From assembly GCA_963827685.1 (NCBI GenBank), contig CAWHBU010000008.1, forward strand, positions 1 through 64,000: a DNA stretch of 64,000 nt, written 5' to 3'. The stretch's first letter is position 1. Every line of letters begins with the position of its first letter. Source of the stretch: an uncultured delta proteobacterium (GTDB lineage: Bacteria; Desulfobacterota; BSN033; UBA1163). Below the pieces are notes generated by a model that did no database searches, was not told the origin of the DNA, and saw only the letters and a list, made by a program, of their open reading frames with translations. A program made the translations under genes and the position numbers. Positions 20,768-63,856 of the stretch are shown piece by piece.

Positions 20768-20850
20768 TTGATGTCGGAGATCGAGTTCGCGTTGAGCTCA
20801 TAGGGACTGATGTAGAACGAGGATTCATCGACTTTGGGAGAGCAGGATGA
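20768..20850 (+). repeat. Second copy of the RNB gene 3' end
   Basis: 20768-20836 nearly identical to 19998-20066; ends in an alternative stop. Confidence 0.9.
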
Positions 20851-20860
20851 AGAGAGGGGG

Positions 20861-20928
20861 GAAGGCGGATTATTTGTAATTGTCTTGAACGATACTTAAT
20901 CTGACAGACACTGTCAAATTACCTCTTG
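20861..20928 (-). promoter_or_regulatory. Repeat E copy 1 with sigma70-like promoter TTGACA-17-TATCGT (20917-20889)
   Basis: Closely similar to 57970-58036; internal tgacag/ctgtca palindrome. Confidence 0.7.
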
Positions 20929-21128
20929 ATTAAAGATTGTACCTACAAAGAGTGATCATCATGCCCTATTAAGAGTTGTCGATTTGCGATTGGAAGAGAG
21001 AGCGCAAAGCGAAGAAGTGGAGTCATGGCAAAACGGTCAACCTGTCAGCTCCGGCAAATTGCTAGGACGAATCAGTATTAGGTTTTTCAAATAAGGGCAA
21101 ATCCCAATGACCCATTTGGGACACAAAA

Positions 21129-22613
21129 TCAAGCAGGCAATGTAACCGTAAATGTTGTATCTTTACCGATCTCGGATTTCAAGTCAATTTGCCCACCGTA
21201 AGCACTTACGAGACGTTTAACAAGTGCGAGGCCTAAGCCGGCACCTTCTACGTTTCCAGTAAAGAATTTTTCTATCTGGTAGAATTTTTCGAATACTTTC
21301 CCTTGGTCCTCGGCAGGTATACCGCGTCCATTATCGTAGATTGAAATCTCGAGCTCTTGCGCGGATTTCTTGACAGAGATGCTGATTTTAATAACTTCCT
21401 TATCGTTAAACTTAATTGCATTTTCGACGAGATTTTTCATGATCATGTCCATATGGGATTTATTTATACGGACGATATAACCTTGATCGGGGCAATCAAT
21501 TTTCAATTCTGTTTTTTTATCCTTTATTCCTTCGATCATGGGATTGACAAGGAGAGGCAGATAATCACACAGCACGATCTCCTCCTTCTGTAGATCAAGC
21601 TTCATCGTATTCAATTCCGTGAACTTTAATAGTCCGTCAATCAAAGTTGTATGTAAACGCGCCTGTCTTAAAACAGACTCTATATATTTTTTCTGTTTGT
21701 CATTAAGTGGACCGCAAATATTTTCTTTCTGAAGTATGGATGCACTTTGAGTGATGACGGTAAGAGGCGTGCGCAGCTTATGCGACATGAGGCCTAAGAA
21801 ATCCTGCTTCATTAGCTCTTCTGTGCGCGTATCCGTTACATCGCGTATCGTCATGATGATATTCGAGACTTTCTCTTGGGCATCTTTTAATACATCCAAA
21901 CTTGCCTCTAAATATAATGCTTTGAATTGTTCTGTCTCCTCTCTGATGACATCAAAAGCTTTATGCGACCGGGAAACATCAATCATTTCTTCCTTTGGGA
22001 TTGAAACAGAATAATTTAGAAAAATAAAATCGACTAAATTAATGGTTTCCGGGTCGGTAATATTTAAGTACTTCTGGGCAGATGAATTAATCGCCGCTAT
22101 TTTCCAATCGGCCGTACAGACCACGACTCCATCGCCCATCTCTTGAATAACCCTATCGAACTTTTGCCTTTCAGCTTCCTCTTTCACCCTTTGTAATTCT
22201 TTCAATTCGCGCCGCTGACGCTGGAGTTCCAGATGGGCACTGACCCGGGCGTTCACCTCTTCAAACTGGAACGGCTTGGTCACGTAGTCCACGCCGCCGG
22301 TACCGAAGGCCCTGACCTTGTCCATCGTCTCGTTCAGAGCGCTAATGAAAATGACCGAGATCTCTTTCAGTTTTTCGTCTTTCTTCAGCCGCTCGCATAC
22401 CTCATAACCATCCATTTCCGGCATCATGATATCGAGAAGGATAAGGTCGGGCGGGTCGTTTTTCGCCGCCTGCAGGGCGAGTTTTCCGCTCGGCACCGGC
22501 CGGACCCTATATCCCCGTTCCTTAAGCATCCCGGTCAGCAATTGGAGATTCGCCGGTGTGTCATCGACGACGATGATATTCGGTACGTCCTCACGACTCG
22601 TTCGTTGTTCCAT
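21129..22613 (-). CDS. Hybrid REC-PAS-histidine kinase
   Basis: REC (VVDD, LLDIMMP), H-box SHKLRTPL, ENAIKF, GAGLGLA. Confidence 0.9.
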   Translation of the reverse strand: MEQRTSREDVPNIIVVDDTPANLQLLTGMLKERGYRVRPVPSGKLALQAAKNDPPDLILLDIMMPEMDGYEVCERLKKDEKLKEISVIFISALNETMDKVRAFGTGGVDYVTKPFQFEEVNARVSAHLELQRQRRELKELQRVKEEAERQKFDRVIQEMGDGVVVCTADWKIAAINSSAQKYLNITDPETINLVDFIFLNYSVSIPKEEMIDVSRSHKAFDVIREETEQFKALYLEASLDVLKDAQEKVSNIIMTIRDVTDTRTEELMKQDFLGLMSHKLRTPLTVITQSASILQKENICGPLNDKQKKYIESVLRQARLHTTLIDGLLKFTELNTMKLDLQKEEIVLCDYLPLLVNPMIEGIKDKKTELKIDCPDQGYIVRINKSHMDMIMKNLVENAIKFNDKEVIKISISVKKSAQELEISIYDNGRGIPAEDQGKVFEKFYQIEKFFTGNVEGAGLGLALVKRLVSAYGGQIDLKSEIGKDTTFTVTLPA

Positions 22614-27321: not shown

Positions 27322-27567
27322 AAAAGAGGGATGAAGGTTTCTGTTTTGTAAGTATTTAATTTAATAAGGATTTTTTATATTGTGGCAGAGTTGTTGACGG
27401 CGATTTAATACAGAAAGCCCCGGCTTAAAATGCCATTTTGTCCAAGGTATGACGAATCTTGTAAATCCAAGCTGAAATGGTGGCTCAGCGGGTACCCCTA
27501 CAAGTATTCATTTCAAAATAGGCAGGAAAGTTAATGAGTCAAGTAGCGCGGTGGAATTTCCCTCGTT

Positions 27568-27640
27568 GAATGTCAAGCCGAAAGGACCACAAGATATGAA
27601 GGAAGGTTTTAGGCCAAGATCGCAGATAACGATTACCAAA
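27568..27640 (-). repeat. Repeat F copy 1 (retains -35, lacks -10)
   Basis: gaatgtcaagccgaaaggaccacaagatatgaaggaaggttttaggcc identical to 29251-29298. Confidence 0.85.
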
Positions 27641-28190
27641 TGAAATGTGAATAATTTATGAAAAGAGGGCGGAAACATTTGTATCTCCGTCTATGGCTCT
27701 TTTAACTATTAGCCCACTAAGCTCTAAGGGTTCGACAAGCTGACCATTGATTCAGCCTGAGCGTACCGAAGGGCCACCCGCACCTTATCCGCTCCGTCCC
27801 TAAAGCTCTGGAGCGTCAGTGACTTCCCCCATCGAAAGAGGAGGAATGGGTCAGGGAGATTTCCAATATCTTTGGTTAGTCCTAAGAGCTTCTGACATTT
27901 AGCGAGATAGTTCCAGTAGCACCGCTTTTACCTTCTTGGGAGGGGAAATTTAGCTCCTTAATTCCTCCGATGATACATTGCTCCAATTTCTTTTCTGCCA
28001 GTTAGCTGTGCTTCCGAACCTTTAGCAAGTGGTCTTTTCTATGGTTTGAGGATAACATGCGATGTTGACCGAGGTGTTCTTGATGTAACCGGAAACAAGG
28101 CAGCAAAACGTTCAAAGGTGCCTTTTGGAGGGTTTTTTATGCAAGTGTGGGGAGACCCTTTTGTTAAGTTAATTGGAGGGTGGACCCAAT

Positions 28191-29052: not shown

Positions 29053-29065
29053 AGGATTTGTCTTC

Positions 29066-29162
29066 GGGGTCAGACTTAATTATTGAGATTTTTTCTTGCT
29101 CTCTTTAAAAACAAGATAATCTTTCGTTCTGTTCTTAAATGTCAATATTTAAGTCTGACCCC
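29066..29162. repeat. Repeat C copy 1: 97-bp MITE-like unit GGGGTCAGAC...GTCTGACCCC
   Basis: Terminal inverted repeats; near-identical copy at 35164-35260. Confidence 0.9.
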
Positions 29163-29230
29163 AGGGTTTTTATCAAGTCAAAGTGTTCTTTTTCTAACGA
29201 TATGATAAGAACTCGCTATCGGATGAGTTG

Positions 29231-29298
29231 AATGTATGAAAAACGGAGTCGAATGTCAAGCCGAAAGGACCACAAGATATGAAGGAAGGTTTTAGGCC
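29231..29298 (-). promoter_or_regulatory. Repeat F copy 2 with promoter TTGACA-17-TACATT (29259-29231)
   Basis: Hexamers and 17-bp spacer read directly; related copies at 27568 and 59833. Confidence 0.7.
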
Positions 29299-29341
29299 GG
29301 TAGAGAAATAAACGGGACGGCTGTTCTATACTCCCCAAGGG

Positions 29342-29513
29342 TTTGAAGGTCTTGATGTCGGAGATCGAGTTCGCGTTGAGCTAATAGGGACTGATGTAGA
29401 ACGAGGATTCATCGACTTTGCCCGAGTAGAAAGAGGGCAGGGGGATTGAGATTCGCCCGTCTCAGCAGGGGAATAGATCATTATATAAGTAGAAATTTAT
29501 AATTTTGTGGACG
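29342..29513 (+). repeat. Third copy of the RNB 3' end plus downstream flank (172 bp)
   Basis: Aligns without gaps to 19988-20159. Confidence 0.9.
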
Positions 29514-29535
29514 CCCCCCCTTTTTTATCACAACA

Positions 29536-34892: not shown

Positions 34893-34966
34893 AAAGTTTT
34901 TTTCTGGAGCCTCCGTTCGTCTACCCTTCTGACAAACTCTGCCATAAGGTTAAATGAATGCAATAA

Positions 34967-35082
34967 GGCCACATCTTCAGATGCCATGAATTTGTCCGAT
35001 GTTTTTTGGTGTCTCCCCGTGTTCCGGCACTTCCTGGTTCAGAGAATACACCTCTCAGATTTCTATGTCAAACATAAGTTTT
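34967..35082 (-). promoter_or_regulatory. Repeat B copy 1 with promoter TTGACA-17-TATTCT (35071-35043), facing SIR2
   Basis: ~115-bp repeat also at 36535-36650 and 57133-57251. Confidence 0.8.
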
Positions 35083-35163
35083 CTTGTTTCCGAAGCTTGA
35101 AAGAAGGTTTTGAAAAGAGGCCCGAGCACCAGGTTGGGACGTGAGGCATATAGAAGTGTCTTC

Positions 35164-35268
35164 GGGGTCAGACTTAATTATTGAGATTTTTTCTTGCTCT
35201 CTTTAAATACAAGATAATCTTTCGTTCTGTTCCTAAATGTCAATATTTAGGTCTGAGCCCATGACCCC
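35164..35268. repeat. Repeat C copy 2
   Basis: Near-identical to 29066-29162, same tgtcttc left flank. Confidence 0.9.
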
Positions 35269-36481: not shown

Positions 36482-36534
36482 TAGTCGTCCCTCCAGTTGG
36501 TAGTAGGTCGAGCAGTTTCTGGCGGGAGGAACAC

Positions 36535-36650
36535 GGTCACATCTTCAGATGTCATCAATTTGTCTTATTATTTTTTGTGTCTCTCCGTATGCGGGCACTT
36601 CCTGGTTCAGAGAATACACCTCTCAAATTTCTATGTCAAACATAAGTTTC
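36535..36650 (-). promoter_or_regulatory. Repeat B copy 2 with promoter (36639-36611)
   Basis: TTGACA-17-TATTCT on the minus strand. Confidence 0.8.
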
Positions 36651-36736
36651 AATTTTTCCAAAGAAAGTTTGGAGATGAATCTACGTCAAGATCTGTCGAT
36701 TTTGGATTAGAAGAGAGTGAATCTCTTGGGGACATC

Positions 36737-38608: not shown

Positions 38609-38686
38609 GGGATCAGATCTTCACGGGTTGTTGATTGGAATATATCTATTTTATGAAAATTGGTCAACCGAAACTTTTGGAAAGAA
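38609..38686 (-). promoter_or_regulatory. Repeat A copy 1 (partial) with promoter TTGACC-17-TATATT (38667-38639)
   Basis: Conserved core gattggaatatatctattttatgaaaattggtcaaccgaaact. Confidence 0.8.
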
Positions 38687-38730
38687 GTCCTCCTTGTAGG
38701 ACCATCTCCAAGCTATTTTACCCGCACTTC

Positions 38731-39213: not shown

Positions 39214-39299
39214 TCGAATAAAACCCCTTTTCAGGAAAAATTCATTTAATCCAAGTCTGCGGGGATTCTTAATACCTGATGCAAACTATACGTGGTTCC

Positions 39300-39465
39300 G
39301 GGGTCGGATCTTTATCCTTATTGCCTATATTTCACGAAAGTTTTCTTCTGACCCCAGGCTTTTTTCCTAAAAACGAAAAAATATCTGCACCGCCACCCTG
39401 GGGTTTAATGATTGGAATATATCTATTTTGTGAAAATTGGTCAACCGAAACTTTCAGAAAGAAAG
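39300..39465 (-). repeat. Repeat A copy 2 (GGGGTC...GACCCC unit + promoter core 39444-39416)
   Basis: Aligns with copies at 40679, 46175/47785 and 51632. Confidence 0.9.
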
Positions 39466-39595
39466 CAAGGAAAAACTGGTTGCCAATTTCCACGAACAAA
39501 TCATCTTGAGCTTTTTCTGGACTAACGGTATATAGAGTTAAGCATCATCTAAGAAATCAACGAAGAGTTGAAGTGACCGAGTCGAAGGAGAGAAT

Positions 39596-40646: not shown

Positions 40647-40678
40647 GGGGTCAGGTCTTGCAATAATACAATGGCTCT

Positions 40679-40933
40679 GGGGGCGAATCTTTATTCTTGA
40701 TTTTATCTATATTTCACGAAAGTTTCCCTCTGGCACCAGGTTTTTTCCCCTGAAATTGAAGAAATATCTGCACCGCCACCCTGTGGATTCCTGATTGGAA
40801 TATATCTATTTTATGAAAATTGGTCAACCGAAACTTTCAGATCGAAAGAGTCAAAGAAGTGGGATACTTGTAACATCTACAACGAGTGAAGATATGCTCT
40901 CTGTATGATCTGAAGATTTACGATTGAAATCGA
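40679..40933 (-). repeat. Repeat A copy 3 with D-type tail
   Basis: Same unit and promoter core; tail abuts the R' box of an interrupted attC. Confidence 0.88.
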
Positions 40934-40940
40934 GTATAAC

Positions 40941-42743
40941 GAGCCTGTAGAAAAAGTCACTTTTTTAAAAACTGCTTCTTCTGCTGGATCAAAAATAGGA
41001 AATTATTTTCTGTCATCAAAAGTTTTTCCGATTCTTGGCGAAATGTTCGTCTTTTCATGATATTTTTCTTACCCCAATACCCTATCACCCAATCCGGCTC
41101 CTTCACGCAAGCTCCAGACCGTATCGATGCACTTTAAATAGATTGTGCACCGCACAGTAGAGTAACCACTGGGTGTTCACTTTTCGTTTCCCTCGAAGGG
41201 TAAATCGGTTCAACCCTAAGGTAGAGCAGATATTCCCAAATACAGGTTCTGCCGTTCCGAGTCTCCTGTCGTAGATGAGTCTGCCTTTTATCGAATCGAT
41301 CTTGCGCTTCATCTTCTGGGTAAACGTCTCCGGCTTCGACTCCGCACTCCCCTGAAAGAAGTACACCTGTCTTGCCTCCGTTCTGTCCGGATGTCTCAGG
41401 CATCTCTCCCGTAGTCCGCAGATCCGACAGTCGGTCTTTCTCCCATGAAACTTGATGGCCCGCTGACCGTTGACCACCACATTCCCCCCATTGCGATACA
41501 GGCGCTTACCCCCAGGACAGATGCAATGAGTCTTGTCTTCGCTGATCGTAAAATCCCTGTGTGGCCTGTATAAGTCGGCCACTCCGTAGTACTCAGCCCT
41601 CTCCTTTCTGAATTGCTCTTTGTATTTGTCAACGTCCGAAAACCGCGGGTCCCGCTTCCGAAACTGCGTGTCTGCAATATAGGCATCGATCCCTTGCCCC
41701 ATGACCTCCTTCATATTCGCCTCGGTATGAAACCCACTGTCCGCTGTGAGCTTTGCTTTCTCGAAGATATCCTGTTTAATGCCGACGGCCTCGAAGTTCT
41801 CCCTCGTCCCCTCGAGCATAGGAAGAAGAAGATCATGTTCCTGCGCTGCTCCAAATGCCTCCGCATGTACAACCACCTGGTGCTTTCCGTCTACCACCGC
41901 TACCCCATCGTAACCCTGGATCACCCCGTGCGAGGTCTTCATCTTGGCGCTCTCATTGTCCGTGATGTTGCTCTTCACGGGCTTACCGCTCTTGCCAGGT
42001 TTGTCCTCGTTTTCTCGTAGCCATGCCTTTATCTTCTTTACCTTCCCCCGAAGGGTCTCCACATACTGCTCTTCTTGCTCCATCACTCCCCGGTCCGCCT
42101 CGGTAACATCCACCTCCCGATGCCGCTTGACAATCTGCCTGATCACCTTCTCCATCTTCTCTCTTTTCTTCTCCAGTTCTTTCTTCGTCCCGCTCCATTC
42201 TTTCGAGGCGTTTGAAGGCAGCTTGCAGCCATCCACTGCAAACATCTCTTTCCCGATCAGCCCCATCTCATCGCAGATCAACAGTATCTCTAGAAACAGA
42301 TGGATGATCTCCTGGCCCGAGGTCGAAATGAAGTCTGAGATCGTTGTAAAATGCGGCTGCGTATCTGCCGACAGTGCCATGAAGATAACATTCTCTTGAC
42401 AACACTGCGCTATCTTTCGGCTCGAGGTGATTCCTCGTGAGTAGGCATACAGGATAATCTTTAATAGGATGGTGGGATCGTAGGCCGGCGCTCCCATCTC
42501 GTCGTTTCGGTACCGGCAATCAAAAATCGACAGGTCTATCTCGTTGTCAATGAGGTAATGAAGGCTATACTCAAACGTCCCGGGTAAGATCTGTCGGTCA
42601 AAGTGGATCGGTATGAACTTTCCCTGTGAATAATCAAACTCTTTGTATCTCGCCATCCAGTCCCTCCTAAGCGGTCTCCGCTCTCTTTGCCGCTACTGAT
42701 ATGGCGATTTTATCATGCTTTTAAGACTTTTTTCTACAGGCTC
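40941..42743 (-). mobile_element. IS1182-family insertion sequence
   Basis: Terminal IRs GAGCCTGTAGAAAAA(A)GTC; 3-bp target duplication AAC. Confidence 0.9.
41103..42656 (-). CDS. IS1182-family DDE transposase
   Basis: GAPAYDP..LLKIILYAY, SSRKI, AVDGCK, ADSGF, AEPVFG. Confidence 0.92.
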   Translation of the reverse strand: MARYKEFDYSQGKFIPIHFDRQILPGTFEYSLHYLIDNEIDLSIFDCRYRNDEMGAPAYDPTILLKIILYAYSRGITSSRKIAQCCQENVIFMALSADTQPHFTTISDFISTSGQEIIHLFLEILLICDEMGLIGKEMFAVDGCKLPSNASKEWSGTKKELEKKREKMEKVIRQIVKRHREVDVTEADRGVMEQEEQYVETLRGKVKKIKAWLRENEDKPGKSGKPVKSNITDNESAKMKTSHGVIQGYDGVAVVDGKHQVVVHAEAFGAAQEHDLLLPMLEGTRENFEAVGIKQDIFEKAKLTADSGFHTEANMKEVMGQGIDAYIADTQFRKRDPRFSDVDKYKEQFRKERAEYYGVADLYRPHRDFTISEDKTHCICPGGKRLYRNGGNVVVNGQRAIKFHGRKTDCRICGLRERCLRHPDRTEARQVYFFQGSAESKPETFTQKMKRKIDSIKGRLIYDRRLGTAEPVFGNICSTLGLNRFTLRGKRKVNTQWLLYCAVHNLFKVHRYGLELA

Positions 42744-42793
42744 AACGATCGAAATCAGCGGTGGCTGGAAGCCATCCGCTGGAGTTGTTAGCC
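42744..42793 (-). other. attC-like site interrupted by IS1182 (remainder at 40934-40940)
   Basis: Reconstructed minus strand GGCTAAC-AACTCCAGCGGATGGCTTCCAGCCACCGCTGATTTCGATC-GTTATAC. Confidence 0.65.
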
Positions 42794-45007: not shown

Positions 45008-45122
45008 TTTTCATGCGGCTCTCTGCTGATTACTGGTAAAAATCTACACCTTTTGAAAAAAATGTCAATTGCATATTTCAGGAAGAAACATTGCATCTCT
45101 GCCCTCTTGAGTTGCGGGTCCT

Positions 45123-45193
45123 GGGGTCGAATCTTTATCATTGATTTTCCCCGTATTTCACGAACATTTCCTTCTGACCCCAGGCTTTTCCCC
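45123..45193. repeat. Repeat A copy 4 (GGGGTC...GACCCC unit only)
   Basis: ggggtcgaatctttatc...cttctgaccccaggctttt. Confidence 0.85.
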
Positions 45194-46099: not shown

Positions 46100-46189
46100 G
46101 AATACCTTTCCCCATTCTTTAAAAGGAATAAGATTCTAAGTAATTTGTGTTGTTAAAAGGATGAATGGGTTGCTGGGGTCGAATCTTTA

Positions 46190-47784
46190 CAGTCTGTTGA
46201 AAAACTCTATTCAATAAATTCTTTGCTTTAATATATCACAATGGTAGAATATGGCAACTTTTGAATAAAGGAGGAGCCATTGTTAGGAGAAAACCCACGA
46301 AGTGAGCGCATGTTCTACTATGTCCGGATGGAAGATATCGTTCCAGAGAACCATCTTCTAAGATTGATCGACAGACATATCGATCTAAAATTCATTCGGG
46401 ACAAAGTGAAGCATCTATACAGTCATACAGGGCGTCCATCGATTGATCCGGAGGTATTACTCAGGATGCTTTTAATTGGGTATCTGTATGGAATCACATC
46501 AGAGCGTCGCCTATGCGAAGAAGTACAGATGCACATTGGGTACAGGTGGTTTGTGGGCTTGAACCTTGAAGACAAGGTGCCAGATCATTCGACCTTCTCC
46601 AAGAATCGGCATGAGCGGTTTTCAGAGAGCGATCTATTTCAGAGAATCTTTGACGAGATTGTGAATCAATGTGTCTCTCAGGGGTTGTTAACAGGAAAGC
46701 ATCTGACGGTGGACAGCACCTATGTACAAGCCAATGCGGCCTTAAAGAGTCTAGAACCAATAGTGGTGACCATGGGGACAGGAGAATACATAGAGAAATT
46801 AGAGAGAGAAAACCCTGTAACAGAAGAGCCTTGGGAGCCTGGGGACGACTATCCCCATCGGGGTCAGAAAATAAGCAATGGGACTCATCGGTCCAAGACC
46901 GATCCGGATGCCCGTCTGGCAAGGAAATCGTTGAAAGCAAACACCCAACTTTATCATGGAGTGACCTATATCATGGACAACCGGAGCCGGATCATCGTAG
47001 GGGCGGATGTGGGAAAACCAGATCGGAAAACTGACTGCGAAAAGGCGTTGAAGCAGATACGAAGGATTCCATTTGCTTTTGGGATAAAGCCGGAGAGCTT
47101 AGGAGCAGATAAGGGGTACTCCACGGGAGAATTTATCAATGCACTGGTCAAAGAGAAGGTACAGCCTCACATTCCAATCATGGATTCTCGGAGTCAAAAC
47201 GATCGAGGGATCTACTCGATAGAACAATTTAGCTTTGATCCGGGTGAAAACCGGTTTCTCTGTCCGTCGGGGAAGGAGTTGAAATATTGGGGAATTCATA
47301 AACCCAGTAAGCAGCATGTCTATAGGGCGAGGGCGAAGGATTGCAAAGTGTGTTCGAGGAAGGCGGAGTGTACGAGGGACAGGTCCAGATCACTCAGTTA
47401 TCACATTTATGAGGAGTTTATCAATCAAGCGAGGCAAATCAATCAAACAAGGGCTTATCGGATATCGCAGAGGATGAGGAAGAGGATTGAGGAGCTATTT
47501 GGAGAAGCAAAGGAGTGGATGGGACTGAGGAGGGCTAAATTCCGGAGGCGGAAGTTTATCAGAGAACAGGTATTAATGACGGCGACAGCGCAGAATATAA
47601 AAAGGATGGTAAAGCTGTTATCCAAAGGAGGATACACAAAGCAAGCCCAGGTGGCCCAACAGCTTGGGGAATCGTTTCTTTCAAAGACATTTTCTAAATT
47701 ATTTGGTTTGATGACTCTTTTCAGGTTTCGAACTCAATATTTTCTTCAGGGTTGCTGATAAATGCTTAGTTTTTCAACAGACTG
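46190..47784 (+). mobile_element. IS1182-family insertion sequence inside repeat A copy 5
   Basis: Perfect 17-bp IRs CAGTCTGTTGAAAAACT; TTTA duplicated at 46186-46189 and 47785-47788. Confidence 0.92.
46280..47758 (+). CDS. IS1182-family DDE transposase
   Basis: GRPSIDPEVL, SERRLC, PDHSTFS, VDST, ADKGY, IEELFGEAK. Confidence 0.92.
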   Translation: MLGENPRSERMFYYVRMEDIVPENHLLRLIDRHIDLKFIRDKVKHLYSHTGRPSIDPEVLLRMLLIGYLYGITSERRLCEEVQMHIGYRWFVGLNLEDKVPDHSTFSKNRHERFSESDLFQRIFDEIVNQCVSQGLLTGKHLTVDSTYVQANAALKSLEPIVVTMGTGEYIEKLERENPVTEEPWEPGDDYPHRGQKISNGTHRSKTDPDARLARKSLKANTQLYHGVTYIMDNRSRIIVGADVGKPDRKTDCEKALKQIRRIPFAFGIKPESLGADKGYSTGEFINALVKEKVQPHIPIMDSRSQNDRGIYSIEQFSFDPGENRFLCPSGKELKYWGIHKPSKQHVYRARAKDCKVCSRKAECTRDRSRSLSYHIYEEFINQARQINQTRAYRISQRMRKRIEELFGEAKEWMGLRRAKFRRRKFIREQVLMTATAQNIKRMVKLLSKGGYTKQAQVAQQLGESFLSKTFSKLFGLMTLFRFRTQYFLQGC

Positions 47785-47961
47785 TTTATCCTTGACTTTG
47801 CCCATATCTCACGAAAGTTTCCTTCTGACCCCAATCTTTTTTTCCCTGAAAACGAAGAATATCTGCGCCGCCACCCTGCGGATTCCTAATTGAAATATAC
47901 ATATTTTACGAAAATTGGTCAACCGAAACTTTCAGAAAGAAAGAGTCAAAGAAGCAGGCTG
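47785..47961 (-). repeat. Repeat A copy 5 (left 15 bp at 46175-46189)
   Basis: Removing the IS restores ggggtcgaatctttatccttgactttg... Confidence 0.9.
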
Positions 47962-48195
47962 TTCGTTCCGCCTACGAGTCTACAGTCTGAGATGACTCTA
48001 AGGATTGACGATTACTGGTACAAATGTGCCTAAAAAAGACAGAGTCATTTCTGATAATCATATAATAGGGACCTTGAAATATCTCATGTGATAGTTCATG
48101 GTATGCTTGGAAAAGAAACCAATCCCCACACTGCCTGCATTTTTTCACAAACGAACATCGGTTATTTCAGAAGATAGTCTGAAACCGGCACCGAG

Positions 48196-49337: not shown

Positions 49338-49391
49338 AGTTGTTTTTCGTGACACGGATTTAATCTTGGGGACGGTTCTTATATTCTGATT

Positions 49392-49497
49392 GAAGCTCCC
49401 CGCCCACAGGGCGGGACTTCCCGGCATTGTATAATATCATTTATATTGTGCCCCTTAACCCCGCTAACAAGGCGGGACTTGCGGGGCACGTTCCGGC
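49392..49497 (-). mobile_element. IS200/IS605-type MITE (PATE), ~106 bp
   Basis: Subterminal GC-rich hairpins, right end ...GGGCGGGGAGCTTCA, no target duplication; empty site at 36737-36784. Confidence 0.75.
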
Positions 49498-49529
49498 CAA
49501 TAACAATTAGATACAAAGGGGACAGGAGA

Positions 49530-50322: not shown

Positions 50323-50542
50323 GTCTAATCCTTGTTTTCATATCGCTGCGGCGAAATAAACTTTTTTCAAAATTGACCAATCACTTAGAAATATTATTCA
50401 TTAGTGAAGACGAAGAAATATCTGCGCCGCCACCCTGCGGATTCTTGATTGGAATATATCTATTTTATGAAAATTGGTCAACCGAAACTTTCAGAAAGAA
50501 AGAGTCAAAGAAAAGGGCTGGTTGTTACATCTACAAGTCCTC
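50323..50542 (-). repeat. Repeat A copy 6: promoter core plus attI-like arm ending A|TTAGAC
   Basis: Arm aligns with 55493-55615 exactly up to TTAG. Confidence 0.8.
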
Positions 50543-50758
50543 ACTGAAAGAGAATCTTGCAAGTTGACGATTACGGATAGAAACATTCGCTATCATTCAT
50601 TAGCTGCGGGGCATGGGCCTTGGGAGTGGGTCTTGATTTGACGAGCCACAGCCCCAGGTGTTTCAGGATGGTCTTGATGACCAGCGTAGATTGACTCATC
50701 TCTCAGCAGACGAAAGATAGCACAAAACATGGTATAAGGTTGCTGGAGGAGGATCGGA

Positions 50759-51475: not shown

Positions 51476-51631
51476 AATGTCTCCCTCCTTTGACAAGAAT
51501 TTATTTTGGCCACCCGTGCCATTATGAGATTTCAAAGTTGAAATTTCAGTTTGACGCGAACTGACTTTCTTGTACCGATAGAATACAGGGAAGGCACCCC
51601 CAAAGGGAAATCATAAGCCCTTTGCGGTTTC

Positions 51632-51842
51632 GGGGTCGAATCTTTATCCTTGGCTTTGCCTAAATTTCACGAAAGTTTCCTTCTGACCCCAGCCTTTTTT
51701 CCCCTGAAAACGAAGAAATATCTTCACCGCCACCCCTGCGGATTCCTGATTGGAATATACATATTTTATGGAAATTGGTCAACCGAAACCTTCAGAAATG
51801 GATAGTTAAAAGGTGGGTTGGTTGTGACACCTACAAGTCCTC
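51632..51842 (-). repeat. Repeat A copy 7
   Basis: Full GGGGTC unit, promoter core and tail ending ctacaagtcctc. Confidence 0.9.
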
Positions 51843-51896
51843 GGAGGGAGGCTAATTGGAGAACTGAAGATTTCCATTTGAAAGTAATGATCTGAG

Positions 51897-55492: not shown

Positions 55493-55615
55493 CGCTAACA
55501 TTTATTTTTATATTGCTGCGGCGAAATAAGCCTTTATCAAAAGTTGACCAAGTACTGATTAATATTTTTCGTTGCTGAAAACGAAGAAATATTTCCGGCC
55601 TCCACCCTGTGGATT
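55493..55615 (-). repeat. Repeat A copy 8: attI-like arm ending ATAAAAATAAATG|TTAGCG
   Basis: Homologous to 50323-50440; GTT ~55 bp upstream of the MTase start. Confidence 0.7.
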
Positions 55616-55664
55616 ACCGAGCTGTGATTCAAGCCGTCAAAGTGAAACAGCAGGTTAGGCAATC

Positions 55665-57110: not shown

Positions 57111-57132
57111 CCTCTCTAGGGGAAACACAATT

Positions 57133-57251
57133 GAGTCAGATCTTCAGATGTCTTGAATTTATCCGATGTTTTTTCGGTGTCTCCCCGTGTTCCGGCACTT
57201 CCTAGTTCAGAGAATATACCTCTCAGATTTCTATGTCAAACATGAGTTTCC
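57133..57251 (-). promoter_or_regulatory. Repeat B copy 3 with promoter (57239-57211)
   Basis: TTGACA-17-TATTCT facing GIY-YIG. Confidence 0.8.
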
Positions 57252-57254
57252 ATG

Positions 57255-57755
57255 TCATATGCTGAGACCTGCCCCCTGTGTCCTTCGGTTTAATATTCTA
57301 TCTAATAACTCTTTCCGCTTTTTAAAAAACGGGCTTATAATAAAAAAACCTCCAGGAAACGAACTTTCAGCAACAATAACTTTTTTGTATCGCATGAACG
57401 CTGGATAGTAGATTAGCGAAAACCAGAAATGAGTTTTAACCCCCTGAATTTCTCTTATTGGAATCGCTGACAGTTTACCGAATATTCTCTTTAAATATAC
57501 ATATTCCTTTTCGTTATCAACAAATATTGCATGAGGGACACGGACGTAAATTTCCCAGAAGTATTGTTCTATTACTATGCAAAATAAGGAAAATATCGCC
57601 ATCTCAAAAGATTCTTTCAAATTCTGCTTCTCAATAAGTATGAGAATAGCTGCAGCCATGAAAATTAAACACCCGAGGGGGATGAATACTACCAAAAAGA
57701 ATCCCAAATACCAATCGCATGCTTTCATAAATAGATGCAATTCATATTTTTCCAT
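57255..57755 (-). CDS. Hypothetical membrane protein between 30-bp direct repeats
   Basis: Two hydrophobic segments; repeats at 57252-57281 and 57919-57948. Confidence 0.6.
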   Translation of the reverse strand: MEKYELHLFMKACDWYLGFFLVVFIPLGCLIFMAAAILILIEKQNLKESFEMAIFSLFCIVIEQYFWEIYVRVPHAIFVDNEKEYVYLKRIFGKLSAIPIREIQGVKTHFWFSLIYYPAFMRYKKVIVAESSFPGGFFIISPFFKKRKELLDRILNRRTQGAGLSI

Positions 57756-57961
57756 AGAGTCCCCATTCAGATATTTACTTGTCGATAAAGAAGTCTCGAT
57801 TCTTGTTTTGATATTTGTCGCTTAATGCACCAATATCTTGGCATCCCCCTATAAGTAAGAAGATCCAAAGAGTGTTGGTAATATTTTAAGAATCCGATGT
57901 TGTCTTGAAGCAATACCAATGTCATATGTTGAGACCTGATCCCTGTGTTCTTGTCCTCATT

Positions 57962-58036
57962 GATAGACGAAGGCGGATTATTTGTATTTGCCCTGAATGA
58001 TACTTAATCTGACAGACCCTGTCAAATTACCTCTTG
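57962..58036 (-). promoter_or_regulatory. Repeat E copy 2 with promoter TTGACA-17-TATCAT (58025-57997)
   Basis: Matches 20861-20928; lies downstream of a transposase tail. Confidence 0.72.
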
Positions 58037-58127
58037 CCTAACGAGTACACCGACTACCATTCAATTCTAGGTTGCTTTGGAAAGTGAAGATTGCGGATTG
58101 AAATACTCAACAGATAACTCGGTGGAA

Positions 58128-59761: not shown

Positions 59762-59832
59762 AAAATGATCCCTCCTTTTGGCTAATAACGAGTAAGTAAG
59801 AATGATAAGAACTCCCTTTAGAGCCAGGGATG

Positions 59833-59925
59833 AATATATGAAAAACGGGGTTGTATGTCAAACAAAAAAAACTGTAAGATATGAAGGACGGTTTTGGGCC
59901 AGTTTTCCAGATGACGATTACCAAC
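59833..59925 (-). promoter_or_regulatory. Repeat F copy 3 with promoter TTGACA-17-TATATT (59861-59833)
   Basis: Shares agatatgaagga.ggtttt.ggcc...gattaccaa with the 27568 copy. Confidence 0.7.
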
Positions 59926-59986
59926 TGACCTTCCCCCGAGTTGATGGACACACCTGAGAATTTGTATCATTGGACAGGAGGTGCGT

Positions 59987-60283
59987 ATGGGGGAAAAGAA
60001 TCGTCATTTCAGCCGTGAGTTCAAACGAGATGCAGTGCAGTTGGTCACAGAGAAAGGGATGCCGGTAGGCAAGGTGGCCCGAGAGCTTGATATCCATCCC
60101 AATCTTCTTCATCTATGGAGGAGGAGGTTCTTAGCTAAAGGGGATAAAGCCTTCGTAGGGAAGGGCCGTGTAACGCCAGAGGAAGCGGAAATAAAGGGGC
60201 TCCGGAAGGAATTAGAAAAGGTGAAGGAAGAGAGGGACATTTTAAAAAAAGCCTTGGCCGTATTCTCCAAACGAAACAGATGA
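59987..60283 (+). CDS. IS3 OrfA
   Basis: FSREFKRDAV...VARELDI HTH, ERDILKKA. Confidence 0.92.
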   Translation: MGEKNRHFSREFKRDAVQLVTEKGMPVGKVARELDIHPNLLHLWRRRFLAKGDKAFVGKGRVTPEEAEIKGLRKELEKVKEERDILKKALAVFSKRNR

Positions 60284-61137
60284 AGTATCGGTTGATAGAA
60301 GAGCACAGAGAGACCTACAAGATAAGGAGTATGAGTGAAGTGTTGAAGGTATCCAGAAGTGGTTATTATGCGTGGAAGACGCGTCAACCGAGCACACGTC
60401 AGAAAGACGATGAGGAGTTGCTGGGGCACATACGGGAGATCCACACTCAAAGCAGAAGGCTCTATGGGAGTCCGCGGATCGCAGCGGAGCTCAATAAGCA
60501 GGGTCTTAGATGTGGGAAGAACCGGGTAGCCAGGATCATGAAAGAGCACTCCATATGGGCAGAAGTGAAGAAAAAGAGATTCAGGCGGACTACCGATTCA
60601 CGGCATCATTATGCCTTGGCTGCAAACTTACTGATTGACCAGAGGCAGACAGAGGGGGTATGGGCATCTGATATTACGTTTGTGCCCACTTCTGAGGGAT
60701 GGCTCTATGTGGCAGCAGTGATGAATGTGAAAAGCAGAAAGATCATTGGGCTGTCCATGAGCGATAAGCTCTCTCAGGAGCTAGCTTCTGCTGCGCTCAG
60801 GGACGCGGTGGGCAGGCAAAGCCCCTCTGAAGGGTTGATCCACCATTCTGATCGAGGCAGGCAGTATGCAAGCTATGCCTATCAGGAGCTTTTAAGAGAA
60901 TACGGCATGACTCCTAGTATGAGCAGAAGTGGCAATTGTTATGATAATGCCTATGTGGAGTCTTTCTTTGGCACGCTCAAGACGGAGTTGGTCCATGGTG
61001 AGCGGTACCGTTCAAGGCTGGAGGCGAGGCTTAGTATTTTTGAGTACGTGGAAGTGTTTTATAATCGTCAGAGGAGTCATTCGGCATTAGGGTACAGGAG
61101 CCCAGAGCAGTATGAAAAGCTCCTTAATGAAACTTAA
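60280..61137 (+). CDS. IS3 OrfB (DDE integrase core)
   Basis: WASDIT, HSDRGRQY, DNAYVESFF. Confidence 0.93.
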   Translation: MKYRLIEEHRETYKIRSMSEVLKVSRSGYYAWKTRQPSTRQKDDEELLGHIREIHTQSRRLYGSPRIAAELNKQGLRCGKNRVARIMKEHSIWAEVKKKRFRRTTDSRHHYALAANLLIDQRQTEGVWASDITFVPTSEGWLYVAAVMNVKSRKIIGLSMSDKLSQELASAALRDAVGRQSPSEGLIHHSDRGRQYASYAYQELLREYGMTPSMSRSGNCYDNAYVESFFGTLKTELVHGERYRSRLEARLSIFEYVEVFYNRQRSHSALGYRSPEQYEKLLNET

Positions 61138-61211
61138 TCATGTGTCCACTTTTTCAGGGGAAGGTCAAACCGAAATCTTGCATCATGGTCGAAATCTGTC
61201 AGACAACGACT

Positions 61212-61310
61212 TCAGTAAGAAAGAGTCAAAAAAACGGACTACCTCTTCAACCTACAAAGTTTGAAGATGAATCTACGTTAAGAGCTGTTGATTTTAGATT
61301 GGGGGAGAGG
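61212..61310. repeat. Degenerate D-tail repeat
   Basis: gaagatgaatctacgttaagagctgttgattttagattgggggagagg; relatives at ~36668-36718, ~53375-53426, ~20940-21000. Confidence 0.7.
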
Positions 61311-61458
61311 GGGCAGAAGGGACATCCTATATTGCTCCTGTCAAGAGGGGAAACGAAACAATTTCATCTTTTGCAAAACAGGTGGTGAATCCGTCGGTTC
61401 CTGCAAAACGCTCCACAACTTATTTTCCCCTCAAAAGGCAAGAAATCTTTCGGGTCGT

Positions 61459-62928
61459 CTATGGTATTTTGTTCTCCTCATTAAGATGCGGTTCATCGTT
61501 TTCATACGGGCTACCATCTTTTAAAGTCTGAAACGGAAGAGGGGATTCAGGTAAAGGGAAGACGGTGCTCCCTTTTAAGACTTCATCATCGGGCCGAATC
61601 TCCTGGGAAGTCCACTTTTCGTTGTTATCAGCCCAATCCAGGGATGTATCGATGTATCTCGCCACGCTTTTGCCAGCGATATTAAGTAACAGGAAAAGCA
61701 AGGCCCGCCTGAGGTTGATGGGAGAAACCCTTAAAAGAAATGGAATATGCCGAAGGATCGAGGAGAAAGAATAAAACTCGCTTTGGACATGATGGTGTCC
61801 CTCGGCAAGCTCCTGGGGAGTCATGTTTTTAGGTTGAAATACGACGGTATGGTGGTCGTAATGGCTCCAATCGTGAGAAATGATTCGTCCCTGATCTTTG
61901 AAACGCTGGTATATTCGTGTTCCGGGATAGGGCGTCAGAACATGTAAAGCCATTGTTGGAAGTTTGGTTCTTGCCAAAAATTCCAGGGTATCATCAAAAA
62001 TGGCTTTCGTATCCGTATCAAACCCCAAAATAATGGAAGGGTGAAAGGCGATACCATTGTCCTGGATAATCTTAATCGCCCCCTCCGTCTCTTCTACAGA
62101 TTTGAGCGTTTTTTTCATTCCCATCAGGCTTGAAGGCGATACAGACTCAAGCCCAAAGAATAAGGCCGCACAGCCCGAGAGGCGACATAATTTCAACATT
62201 TCTTTGTCTTTCGCCAAGGAGACGGAACTTTGTCCTACCCATTCGATGCCCAGGGGTATCAACGCTTCAAATAATTCTTTGGAATATTCCGGGTGTCCAG
62301 CAACATTATCGTCTAAGATCAAAAACGTCTTTGAGCCAGATCGTTTGATATCCTCAACAACCATGGAAACCGGTCTATGCCTGATTTTCCTCCCATAGAA
62401 ATCCGTCACCGAACAGAATTCACAGGCGTACGGACACCCTCTGGTTGTCAATAGCCCTACACAGTTAGATAGCGCCTTGTCAATATGAAAATCTCGCCTT
62501 GGGAAAGGAAGCTTTGAAAGATCAGGTTCTGGTACATGGTAAAATTTCTGGAGGTTGCTCTTCCTAAAATCGTTGATGACATCTGCCCAGCAGCCTTCTG
62601 CCTCTCCGATGACAACGGCATCGGCGTGCTCTATGGCTTCTTGCGGTAAGATAGTAGGATGAATTCCACCGAGAACGACTTTGGAACCTCTCTGTCTAAA
62701 TATGTCGGATAATTGATAGCTTCTATTTGCCGTCGCGGTCATGCAGGAAATCCCAACCAGGTCGAAATCCAAAGAAAAATCGATCTCTCTGATTTCTTCA
62801 TCTACAACGGTAATATCAACATCATTTGGCGTCAGTGAGGCCAGAATGTGTAGACTTAATTGAGGTATCTTAATAGCTCTTAGTTTCTTACGGAACTTAT
62901 GAGAAGGTGAAATCAGTAGGAGTTTCAT
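61459..62928 (-). CDS. B12-binding radical SAM protein
   Basis: LGGIHPT, GEAE, TRGCPYACEFC, LTPYPGT. Confidence 0.9.
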   Translation of the reverse strand: MKLLLISPSHKFRKKLRAIKIPQLSLHILASLTPNDVDITVVDEEIREIDFSLDFDLVGISCMTATANRSYQLSDIFRQRGSKVVLGGIHPTILPQEAIEHADAVVIGEAEGCWADVINDFRKSNLQKFYHVPEPDLSKLPFPRRDFHIDKALSNCVGLLTTRGCPYACEFCSVTDFYGRKIRHRPVSMVVEDIKRSGSKTFLILDDNVAGHPEYSKELFEALIPLGIEWVGQSSVSLAKDKEMLKLCRLSGCAALFFGLESVSPSSLMGMKKTLKSVEETEGAIKIIQDNGIAFHPSIILGFDTDTKAIFDDTLEFLARTKLPTMALHVLTPYPGTRIYQRFKDQGRIISHDWSHYDHHTVVFQPKNMTPQELAEGHHHVQSEFYSFSSILRHIPFLLRVSPINLRRALLFLLLNIAGKSVARYIDTSLDWADNNEKWTSQEIRPDDEVLKGSTVFPLPESPLPFQTLKDGSPYENDEPHLNEENKIP

Positions 62929-63433
62929 CACTGCGCCCTCGTTTCTTATAGAGATTTTTAAAAGTTGGTGCCCCCTCTAACACAACATCGACGTTTGGGA
63001 GGAGTTTAAACGCGCCTATTCATGCAGAGAGTAAAGTGAATGCCTTAGAAACCGGGATAACCTCCCCGAAGGGATTCTTTAGAATATGGCTTAGGTTATT
63101 CCTTCTCCTTCTTTTGCAAGAATGCTGTAAGCAAGTCTATCGGCAGAGGGAGGATCGTCGTTGAGTTTTTCTCGGCCGAAGGATCCATCTTAAAGTATCT
63201 GTTCAAGAGGATCTAATATTCCTTATCCTTTCCCTTAGTTTCCGGGTCTTTGTGCGGCCAAAACGGACTTTCGCCCGTGCCTCGGATTTCTTCCATGTCT
63301 ACTACCCCTTCTGAATCTTTTCGGCAATTCAGGGACGATTGAGGTGAAGGTATGTTCTAAAACATTTTTAGGCATTTGTCTACATTTGCCGCTTCTTTAA
63401 AAATAACCCACCGGGGTCAAGTTGTTTTGGAAT

Positions 63434-63856
63434 CTACGTCTCCTTCTTATCGCTATTTTCTTGGAAGTACCGTCGAACTTTCGCCGCAATTTGACGATCA
63501 GTCATCCTGTCAATGGTTTCAATACCGACAATGCGTCCACGCAGTTTGTTTCTCACGAGACGTTTCTTCAGCTCGCCCTTGGCCTCACCAGGACCAAATA
63601 TCAGAATAGATTCTGCATCACGAATACACGCAATGACCGCATTGTAGTAAATGTTGAGAAGTCCAGTAGACCTTCTCTCGCGGCTATCATCTGCGGGTAC
63701 TAGCTGGGATTCATAGGGCGTCGTAGAACGTATACCACTAGAACGTCCGGGCTGTTCAACCTTTGATATGATTAGTCTTATTTCTTCCCCTTTGTCCGTA
63801 ACCGCCACGATCAGGGCCTTCCTATGGTCAATCCACAAACCCACTTTTGTCCTCAT
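63434..63856 (-). CDS. baeRF/host-attachment-like (eRF1 domain 2-like) protein
   Basis: VGLWIDHRKA...ILIFGPGEAKGEL. Confidence 0.7.
   Translation of the reverse strand: MRTKVGLWIDHRKALIVAVTDKGEEIRLIISKVEQPGRSSGIRSTTPYESQLVPADDSRERRSTGLLNIYYNAVIACIRDAESILIFGPGEAKGELKKRLVRNKLRGRIVGIETIDRMTDRQIAAKVRRYFQENSDKKET

Follow-up and report, generated by a model that had tools for sequence, protein, structure and literature searches.

The window described here, by which we mean the whole stretch of DNA analysed, covers the initial 64 kb of contig C8 (75 kb), which belongs to a metagenome-assembled genome (MAG) of 5.2 Mb in 14 contigs, labelled G000. Its source is an uncultured sulfate-reducer-type soil bacterium of a Thermodesulfobacteriota genus. 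From about 21 kb onwards the window carries a one-way array of unrelated accessory genes whose intergenic gaps are filled with dispersed direct repeats, many of them bearing a promoter motif. This array is a genus-wide hypervariable accessory-gene zone anchored at a conserved RNase II-family gene. The original prediction, made from the letters of the sequence, saw in it a gene-capture and expression platform combining integron parts (attC and attI-like sites) with HUH-type ends (RAYT/IS91). As detailed below, the portable promoter modules and the turnover of genes stood up to analysis; the integron parts and the HUH-type ends did not.

The comparison set comprised 14 congeneric genomes (15 genus genomes with G000), 10 other genera of the family and 16 genomes of other families. 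Genomes are designated below by G numbers and contigs by C numbers, and coordinates without a contig name refer to the window. The assembly of one congener, G010, consists of two contigs. Two metagenome contig sets, X3 and X5, were used for alternative arrangements, and those parts of the window within 38-58 kb that no metagenome contig covers were left out of the evidence. Full-text searches of the literature on Thermodesulfobacteriota/Desulfobacterota turned up no account of such arrays.

Layout of the array

Forty open reading frames (ORFs) between 21.1 and 63.9 kb were submitted to a Pfam scan. The unidirectional arrangement noticed at first sight was confirmed, as 35 of the 40 lie on the minus strand. 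The five plus-strand ORFs correspond to a radical-SAM pair (39596-40666), the transposase of an IS1182-family insertion sequence (IS; 46280-47758) and an IS3 pair (59981-61137). The array is organized in units of one to four genes transcribed towards the RNase II-family gene. The cargo includes two hybrid kinases with a binding protein, a SIR2-HerA defence operon, an ImmA/IrrE-DUF4411 pair, a type II restriction-modification pair, two FMN reductases, two dienelactone hydrolases (DLH1 and DLH2), PagL, a ferredoxin, a split O-methyltransferase, a GIY-YIG gene and several orphan genes. Truncated cargo had also been reported correctly: a histidine-kinase fragment occupies 35414-36481, a radical-SAM gene is cut at 40632 and the O-methyltransferase gene is split (55665-56673).

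Eighteen direct-repeat families were found in the window, and the gaps between genes are occupied by families A, B, C, E, F and G together with copies of the tail of the RNase II-family gene, called D tails (Table 1). No pair of inverted repeats of 30 nt or more was detected in the window (seed 12). Repeat A is present in eight copies, at 38.6, 39.3, 40.7, 45.1 (3' part only), 47.8, 50.4, 51.6 and 55.5 kb (partial), repeats B and F in three copies each, and C and E in two; the repeat search agreed in this with the families and counts proposed at the outset, D tails included.

Putative promoter modules

Between 20768 and 63856, the minus strand contains 14 matches to the motif TTGAC[AC]-N16-18-TAnnnT and the plus strand a single one, for an expectation of 1.2-1.5 per strand on average, and 7 at most, in 200 mononucleotide shuffles. 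Thirteen of the 14 minus-strand motifs are located inside repeats (six in A, three in B, two in F and two in G), the exception lying at 45068. The leftward promoter motifs ascribed to the repeats by the original prediction are real features of these sequences.

Repeat A measures ~213-235 nt. Read on the gene strand, it begins with a variable 5' part and continues with CTGAAAGTTTCGG-TTGACC-17 nt-TATATT, one to several CAATCAn heptads and a leader in which the blocks GGGTGGCGG.GCAGATATTTCTTCG, CAGAAGGAAACTTTCGTGAAATATAGGCAAAG and AAGGATAAAGATTCG are nearly invariant. Two palindromic sites are also present: one is the 9-mer GAAAGTTTC, found at the -35 box, and the other is its complement, GAAACTTTC, placed ~105 nt downstream; the two copies share the 9-bp consensus GAAA(G/C)TTTC and resemble operator sites. 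When 37 copies from at least eight genomes were aligned, TTGACC and TATA.T were among the columns that are invariant or at least 90% conserved, and the most constant positions were the key -35/-10 bases and both palindromes.

The same 37 copies display no conserved secondary structure (RNAalifold -1.2 kcal/mol; 0 of 13 pairs covary) and Rfam provides no family for A or B even at E<=1. The only Rfam matches in the window at this threshold are a c-di-GMP riboswitch and a chance microRNA match on repeat C. In view of the missing fold and Rfam match, repeat A is considered a DNA-level element and not a riboswitch-like RNA. Two candidate functions of the leader were rejected. A structured RNA is incompatible with an alifold energy of about zero and no compensatory pairs, the stems CCTGGGGTC/GACCCCAG checked by hand showing no covariation. 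A leader peptide (GTG AAA TAT ...) would have a frame of 2-8 codons, which 5- and 12-nt deletions disrupt in some copies.

Repeat A is itself modular: many copies consist of the core promoter only, the 5' part only or the 3' part only, and the ends of A similarity (160 hits) are scattered over many positions with no single point. The A 3' part and repeat C have their final 8-11 nt in common, so that the leaders contain nested small hairpin elements. As DNA, repeat C folds at -19.6 kcal/mol (z -6.1) and, besides its two window copies, it is found in five places on contig C3. Repeat B is a module unrelated to A, with TTGACA-17-TATTCT followed by a leader of ~90 nt, and has sharp edges.

Judged by their motifs, repeats A, B, F and G are putative promoter-leader modules of 100-235 bp in which a sigma-70-type -35/-10 pair precedes a conserved, unstructured leader, and the majority of units start with one of them. 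Such modules would give transcription to whatever gene lies behind them and, probably, a common regulation. Because the -35/-10 boxes and the palindromes are the conserved parts, the modules are most plausibly promoters with a shared regulatory leader.

An A promoter core with two tandem GAAACTTTC sites was also observed inside a small integrative element of the same genome (C4:148074-150608; L127:5074-7608). On one side of this core (C4:149.5-150.1 kb) stands a ribbon-helix-helix gene, divergent from it and adjacent to a tyrosine integrase gene; on the other, several small genes follow in a row, and a primase gene lies beyond them. The element is a possible source of the A promoter or of its regulator, and the ribbon-helix-helix protein is a first candidate for a protein binding the modules.

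Portability of modules and gene turnover

Of the 57 A copies of G000, G010 and G002 that include a promoter core, at least 42 are followed within 450 nt downstream by an ORF starting on the same strand, a figure that is a lower bound because the ORF calls are crude. The association between a given module and a given gene is not fixed. The A copy at 39.3 kb and its radical-SAM pair are 93% identical to a segment of G005:C269; the homology does not extend past the downstream edge of A, and behind these orthologous modules stand unrelated genes, of 160 aa in G000 and 171 aa in G005 (BLASTP E=25). Reciprocally, the GIY-YIG gene has module B in front of it in two genomes, G000 and G010, but module A in G002; homology sets in ~12 nt ahead of the ATG. 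Within the genus, B is part of the match to this gene in four genomes, and in six the match ends at the start codon.

Individual genes and units also come and go. The FMN reductase gene at 49519-50260 is 89-93% identical in seven congeners, with constant ends running from the ribosome-binding site (RBS) to 12 nt past the stop, and in G010 it closes a unit of three genes. G009:C33 contains a segment 96% identical to the unit 36765-38684, PagL is found in three congeners and the ferredoxin (Fer4) in one. DLH1, DLH2, the first FMN reductase, the PAS-LuxR gene, the O-methyltransferase and the four genes of the SIR2-HerA operon have no nucleotide match at E<=1e-70 in the 14 congeners.

An alternative arrangement was encountered in an independent metagenome. 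In record 12 of X3, the GIY-YIG/O-methyltransferase region (18 differences in 1508 nt) is joined, through A-like pieces plus other DNA of ~750 nt, to a far end made of the 3' half of the A copy at 51.6 kb and the start of DLH2 (9 differences in 376 nt). The 3.9 kb carrying the restriction system, Fer4 and PagL is absent from this record. Modules are portable in both directions, the arrays are mosaic gene by gene, and gene order is not conserved among the 14 congeners. The checks on relatives and on metagenome contigs, where unconserved order and units swapped at repeats were looked for, thus gave the outcome anticipated at the outset.

These observations have to be weighed against a purely regulatory explanation, in which the modules would be conserved for one regulator and for RNA polymerase. 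Genes would then be replaced by ordinary island turnover (IS activity, illegitimate recombination and uptake of DNA with homologous flanks), in which the modules take no causal part. We regard this account as rather unlikely, although several data agree with it: the -35/-10 boxes and the two GAAA(G/C)TTTC palindromes are best conserved, the copies diverge in a star-like manner about their consensus, three IS elements are present in 43 kb, and the A-core promoter of the small integrative element is divergent from a ribbon-helix-helix gene whose product is a possible regulator. It accounts less well for blocks of 200 nt at 75-92% identity, which exceed the need of operators and promoter boxes, for between-genome homology that breaks at module edges and for an X3 contig joining units within A. 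Moreover, the 50-kb array of G002 contains no IS at all and has the same architecture.

The anchor gene and the D tails

On its left, the array is bordered by a flank that is syntenic at 87-94% and comprises a P-type ATPase gene and the RNase II-family gene. Orthologs of the latter in G010, G012, G004 and G006 are 87-94% identical at the nucleotide level and are followed by variable DNA; the DNA behind the anchor gene is different in every genome. In G010, the ortholog (92% identical) precedes at least six D-tail copies and then the G010 array. The pattern of anchor and tail copies recurs in G012, G004, G006, G011 and G005. The D-tail copies have many distinct start and end points. The window holds no tRNA or tmRNA anchor. 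The DNA downstream of the anchor gene contains no integrase gene in G000, G010, G012, G004, G006, G011 or G005, and the upstream ends of the G000, G010 and G002 arrays, whose flanks differ, show no conserved platform.

In accreted integrative elements and their cis-mobilisable remnants, direct repeats of the 3' end of the target gene bound the inserts. The direct repeats of the RNase II-family gene 3' end, each bounding foreign genes, are reminiscent of this arrangement. They differ from it by the absence of an integrase at the locus in the seven genomes listed above, by blocks some of which span only 0.2-3 kb, and by the many end points of the copies.

The sole gene between the native tail and its first copy (20166-20767) is a CsoR-like metal-repressor gene (20318-20632, plus strand), and a piece of about its size (20265-20651) is 87% identical to C6:307664-308050.

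Distribution and age of repeat A

A search with nhmmer returned 22 hits of repeat A in G000, nine on C8 (38.6-65.1 kb), seven at C2:13-39 kb and six elsewhere. The C8 and C2 clusters, which account for 16 of the 22 hits, are each one-stranded, and so are all 22 copies in G010:C1:207-270 kb and all 28 in G002:C17:265-316 kb. Repeat A is thereby clustered and co-oriented, in contrast with a REP-like doublet of the same genome (42 copies in both orientations), and a random scatter over the genome, which would have contradicted the original prediction, is not what was found.

Thirteen of the 14 congeners contain repeat A, as do, weakly, two of the 10 other genera of the family; the 16 genomes searched from other families yielded no match. 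G000, G002, G004, G009, G010 and G012 are rich in the module, and G001, G008, G013 and G014 are poor in it. The exact A core pattern was retrieved from 73 stretches of a species-representative collection, 70 of which belong to uncultured Thermodesulfobacteriota or 'delta proteobacterium' MAGs. The remaining three stem from MAGs with other labels, where each lies at most 0.7 kb from a contig end, and may be mis-binned. A copies of one genome have a mean identity of 0.73-0.81 and those of different genomes one of 0.76-0.79, the nearest neighbour comes from the same genome in 15 of 29 cases, and the closest pair reaches 0.88. The copies are old and not genome-specific. Homogenisation within each genome by concerted evolution was considered and was not seen; identity is equal within and between genomes.

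Search for recombinases, attC sites and transposon ends

Integron attC sites are imperfect palindromes with R''/R' boxes and the consensus RYYYAAC...GTTRRRY. A scan combining a regular expression for consensus pairs with folding detected no attC-like hairpin site in C8:20-75 kb. The two consensus pairs present, at 32752-32881 (inside the HerA gene) and 67124-67200, fold weakly (dG -9.6 and -2.2). The same scan, applied as a positive control to G013:C108, recovered sites of 67 nt (dG -20.5) and 58 nt (dG -17.6) beside intI.

The best match in G000 to the TIGR02249 model is a 141-aa fragment at C3:782919-783275, scoring 191 bits for a cut-off of 265. Such an IntI C-terminal fragment (135-141 aa, ~191 bits) exists also in G010, at C1:720662-721045, and is far from the arrays in both genomes. 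Intact IntI is encoded by four of the 15 genus genomes (G013, G001, G011 and G006), where it comes with attC-like sites. These four genomes contain 0-14 A matches, and the A-rich G002 and G012 have no intact IntI. Of the 19 matches to the tyrosine recombinase domain PF00589 in G000, none is located on C8. The impression that no recombinase is in view proved accurate: the 40 array ORFs include IS transposases and no other recombinase detectable by Pfam. None other than DDE transposases was found either in 104 ORFs of G010, 64 of other G000 pieces, 115 of six other loci and 82 of G002, and no integrase lies beside the arrays of G000, G010 and G002.

Twenty-five Y1_Tnp loci were counted in G000, none of them on C8. 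No non-coding repeat family of the window has a copy within 1.5 kb of a Y1 locus, the three matches nearby being gene paralogs or a non-family segment. The IS91-type family PF04986 has no match in G000, nor in 14 control genomes.

An integron-derived platform with attC/attI sites and HUH-type ends is, on these results, highly improbable and largely refuted. Its appeal came from the integrase fragment on C3, from the intact IntI genes with attC-like sites in the genus, from the 25 Y1 loci and from the cassette-like variability of the array. However, the fragment is on another contig and distant from the arrays, the presence of IntI runs opposite to the abundance of A, the Y1 genes are not near the repeats, and the attC scan was negative with its control positive. 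In addition, the units described here carry promoters, which integron cassettes rarely do according to the available part of Cury et al. (PMC4889954).

The repeats were also considered as relics of IS ends and rejected as such. Compared with the ends of four IS types, they gave only chance matches of 9-15 nt and the split A remnant described below; the ends of IS200, IS1182 and IS3 elements bear no similarity to the window repeats, and no IS200 copy is near them. These comparisons bear on another explanation, according to which the modules would be non-autonomous elements akin to MITEs (miniature inverted-repeat transposable elements), equipped with an outward promoter and moved by a transposase encoded elsewhere, which would place them ahead of genes in one orientation. 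The genome is rich in IS, repeat C possesses terminal inverted repeats and shares its end with the A 3' module, and promoter-bearing Correia, ERIC and REPIN elements are known, as stated in the accessible portion of PMC3575422. We nonetheless judge this origin very unlikely: A and B have no terminal inverted repeats, no copies are near-identical (88% for the best pair), the copies do not scatter like the REP-like element but form co-oriented clusters, and nothing beyond the chance matches and the split remnant links them to the IS ends tested.

Probable reshuffling by homologous recombination

The explanation towards which we lean, and which we hold to be somewhat probable, is that the hypervariable zone is built of promoter-module units reshuffled by host homologous recombination between direct repeats. 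RecA-type homology, and not an enzyme acting in trans, would drive the exchanges, with no dedicated recombinase, attC site or HUH enzyme involved. RecA-type recombination needs ~25-30 bp of identity. Exact shared runs attain 50 nt between A copies (at least 25 nt in nine of 28 pairs), 17-32 nt between B copies and 34-57 nt between D tails, so that runs of 25-57 nt are long enough for the host machinery.

According to this model, neighbouring modules would recombine and loop out the unit between them, and the resulting circle could re-insert at another module. DNA uptake followed by double crossovers would exchange units between genomes. With the crossover placed within a module, every gene would keep a module of its own while the modules become mosaic. 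Repeated loop-out, re-insertion and double crossovers would leave a chimeric module for each gene, units gained, lost or reordered, and duplicated anchor tails.

A number of points weigh against this model. The promoter function of the modules is predicted from their motifs, and three of the 14 motif-bearing copies (20917, 40827 and 47922, the last cut by an IS) have no gene behind them. Paralogous A copies are ~78% alike, a level at which RecA-type exchange would be rare. Terminator-like sites between 38 and 58 kb number 23 for 22.1 expected, and none, judged by their coordinates, lies within an A copy. In contrast to the phage promoter early stem-loop (PeSL) cassettes discussed below, the modules have no terminator half. 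The MAG is 94.5% complete with 8% contamination, its assembly is interrupted at IS copies so that the full array is never contained in a single piece, and several further metagenome-contig joints, left uncounted, may be mosaic mapping of foreign A copies. Finally, some junctions lie very close to the ORF, starting at the RBS and ending 12-65 nt behind the stop, and plain homologous recombination alone leaves the first acquisition of a module by a gene unexplained. Because of this gap a dedicated, unrecognised mechanism stays a rival, though an unlikely one, in either of two forms.

In the first, modules and RNase-gene tails would be sites of an integrase-independent gene capture, circles of module plus gene being re-inserted at any module. 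The agent of this capture would be either a trans-acting enzyme that has escaped recognition or a recombination pathway dedicated to the repeats. We consider this form unlikely; were it true, genes would arrive already armed with a co-regulated promoter, and the Thermodesulfobacteriota would have evolved separately a counterpart of the integron.

The second form, which appears to us distinctly unlikely, is an unrecognised cassette system proper, whose enzyme, encoded elsewhere, would use promoter modules or D tails as recombination sites. The tight ends of units around ORFs, the presence of a module on each unit and the one-way arrays at the same anchor in several species, with repeated anchor 3' ends as at an att site, are what such a system would produce. 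The insertion of two IS1182-family elements at the same A nucleotide (see below) would indicate that this spot is somehow exposed. Arrays persisting with no neighbouring integrase are known as attC-site clusters that have no integron integrase (CALINs; PMC4889954, in the part available). Yet three arrays and their surroundings contain no candidate enzyme, similarity ends at points dispersed along the module, the D-tail copies start and end at many points, A has no hairpin or inverted-repeat core, and the paralogous copies are old with no recent bursts.

Relation to known systems

Homologous recombination between promoter modules has precedents. PeSL cassettes of T4-type phages are sigma-70-type promoter cassettes repeated among non-essential genes in hyperplastic regions, and their recombination leads to insertions, deletions and replacements with no dedicated recombinase, mini-circles having been shown physically, as far as the available parts of Arbiol et al. 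(2010; PMC2839356) and Comeau et al. (2014; PMC4122927) report. The window repeats likewise bear a sigma-70-like promoter motif, predicted from the sequence, and insertions, deletions and replacements between relatives end at repeats. In those same sources, in the parts available, the PeSL promoter is coupled to a terminator stem-loop and resides in phage genomes; here, the modules are 100-235 nt long with long leaders and no terminator half, and are carried by a bacterial chromosome. The model favoured above would follow the logic of PeSL cassettes (PMC2839356 and PMC4122927, in part) and would also fit the notion of putative mobile promoters (PMC3575422, in part).

The array also resembles, and departs from, several other systems. 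Putative mobile promoters (PMPs) were reportedly described by Matus-Garcia, Nijveen and van Passel in 2012. The accessible portion of PMC3575422 defines them as similar non-coding sequences (at least 80% over at least 50 nt) upstream of unrelated genes, with no known mobile element or Rfam RNA, thought to rewire transcription and moving in an unexplained manner. The modules of the array answer this definition, with at least 80% similarity over at least 50 nt, unrelated genes downstream and no known IS or RNA family. PMPs are mostly pairs scattered in a genome, according to the same portion of that paper. The present modules, by contrast, number at least 20 copies per genome, on one strand, in arrays of 40-80 kb at a conserved locus, with several families interleaved and module-gene swapping between species.

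The likeness to integrons, including sedentary chromosomal ones, and to CALINs lies in a one-way array of unrelated, often single-gene units that vary at the level of the unit and include defence genes and toxin-antitoxin pairs. For integrons, the available part of Cury et al. (2016; PMC4889954) indicates that promoters are rare in cassettes and that integrase-less arrays constitute CALINs. Here, no attC site and no attI/Pc platform accompany the array, IntI is unlinked and the repeats stand 5' of the genes with promoter motifs. Instead of promoterless cassettes read from one Pc, 14 strand-specific promoter motifs are present. REP/REPIN, Correia and ERIC elements are intergenic repeats able to supply promoters (PMC3575422, in the part available), and the array does include a REP-like doublet and repeat C, bounded by terminal inverted repeats. 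Repeats A and B, unlike them, are not palindromic, do not occur in both orientations and have no terminal inverted repeats.

The concept of such modules thus has precedents in PMPs and PeSL cassettes. What is unusual is the scale, the interleaving of module families, the genus-wide conservation at one anchor and the evidence for two-way swapping. Horizontally acquired genes usually face an expression problem, for which integrons use one platform promoter; in this array, every unit would bring or receive a promoter-leader module of standard type. Should recombination also be guided by the modules, integron-like shuffling would be achievable by ordinary host recombination and reusable regulatory DNA, and PMPs, so far mostly isolated pairs, would become an organised system that can be tested and that has dozens of copies in each genome. 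The modules have operator-like palindromes in common, and these point to a single regulator governing a large and fast-changing set of hydrolase, redox and phage-defence genes in anaerobes of wetlands and soils. The modules are also would-be expression parts for the phylum, whose genetic tools are few.

Features of the window

Table 1. Anchor, repeats and insertion sequences of the window
Feature	Position	Strand	Remarks
RNase II-family gene (RNB + S1 domains), anchor facing the array	18608..20095	+	orthologs with Pfam RNB, RNase_II_C_S1
Native D tail: last ~110 nt of the RNase II-family gene and ~70 nt downstream	19984..20165	+	
D-tail copy 1, 88%	20768..20860	+	encloses 0.6-kb unit with CsoR-like gene
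Repeat G, TTGACA-17-TAAGTA-type motif at 20917	20861..20946	-	second copy 57919-58103
Repeat F	27565..27643	-	
Repeat C, ~97-nt element with 21-bp imperfect terminal inverted repeats	29059..29171	-	
Repeat F, promoter motif at 29259	29186..29311	-	upstream of repeat C and response-regulator gene 28570-28980
D-tail copy 2, 91%	29338..29519	+	17 nt behind stop of minus-strand gene 29536-30210
Repeat B	34957..35133	-	heads SIR2-HerA defence operon
Repeat C joined to A 3' module fragment	35157..35261	-	
Repeat B	36530..36717	-	heads truncated response-regulator/kinase gene 35414-36481
Repeat A, core promoter alone	38624..38687	-	heads ImmA/IrrE-DUF4411 pair 36862-38587
Repeat A, full length	39282..39517	-	heads 160-aa gene 38731-39213; radical-SAM pair divergent
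Repeat A, full length	40661..40898	-	adjoins truncated radical-SAM gene; no downstream gene
IS1182-family insertion sequence, 517-aa transposase	40937..42747	-	empty site in X5, joint 41014->42678
Repeat A, 3' module alone	45117..45193	-	
IS1182-family insertion sequence, 492-aa transposase	46189..47785	+	within repeat A, TTTA duplication
Repeat A split by IS1182-family IS	47760..47997	-	
REP/REPIN-like doublet of GC-rich hairpins, 110 bp	49391..49500		genome-wide repeat, not array-specific
Repeat A 5' module + module E (50325-50426)	50405..50549	-	heads FMN reductase gene 49530-50282
Repeat A, full length	51615..51849	-	heads dienelactone hydrolase gene 50759-51535
Partial A + module E (55495-55597)	55495..55620	-	heads DNA methylase/MjaI-type endonuclease pair 53466-55440
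Repeat B	57128..57285	-	heads GIY-YIG gene 56799-57128
Repeat G, promoter motif at 58025	57919..58103	-	heads gene 57255-57755
Repeat F, promoter motif at 59861	59802..59928	-	heads gene 59015-59761
IS3-family insertion sequence	59916..61177	+	14 near-identical copies in genome

The A copy interrupted by the 492-aa-type IS1182 element has its last ~29 nt at 46160-46188, in front of a DUF89 gene (45224-46099), and the IS-free form of this site is found in record 10 of X3. IS1182-family elements of two kinds, with transposases of 492 and 518 aa, have entered repeat A at one exact nucleotide, which follows ...CAAGGATAAA, and the insertion is accompanied by a TTTA/TAAA duplication. Insertions of this kind number four and include both orientations (window 46160-47997, C2:14201-15797, C2:37534-39130 and C2:~26.1-27.75 kb). 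Repeat A thus holds an IS1182 target hot spot at which insertion uncouples the promoter from its gene. One of these insertions belongs to a recent segmental duplication (98-100%) between window positions 45134-47786 and C2:36481-39130 of the same genome; the duplicated segment consists of an A 3' fragment, the DUF89 gene, the IS1182 element and A, and the IS is oriented oppositely in the two copies.

The 42 copies of the REP-like doublet are distributed over seven contigs, 26 on the plus and 16 on the minus strand, and have sharp ends. The doublet is precisely absent from some X3 and X5 contigs (joint 49388/9->49498). A c-di-GMP-I riboswitch (49259-49336, minus strand; 39.8 bits for a gathering score of 35) heads the dienelactone hydrolase gene 48196-49146, a unit that has this leader of its own in place of a promoter module.

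The SIR2-HerA pair of the defence operon (29536-34892, minus strand) was recognised by PADLOC with E values of 7.6e-147 and 5e-226. The operon continues with the genes of two more proteins, one of 625 aa that matches AAA_16 weakly and one of 224 aa for which neither Pfam nor PADLOC gave a match. An 881-nt gap (27310-28190), situated behind an HTH_17 (excisionase-type) gene, contains no ORF of 90 aa or more; a 124-nt piece of it (27999-28122) has copies of 72-77% identity on C2 and C4, and no integrase remnant was detected on contig C8. Lastly, the receiver-domain ends of two response-regulator/kinase genes (22198-22654 and 36066-36522) are 94% identical over 457 nt and their kinase parts differ, that of the first gene having a 95% match in G008. 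These genes are mosaics formed by recombination within the coding sequence.

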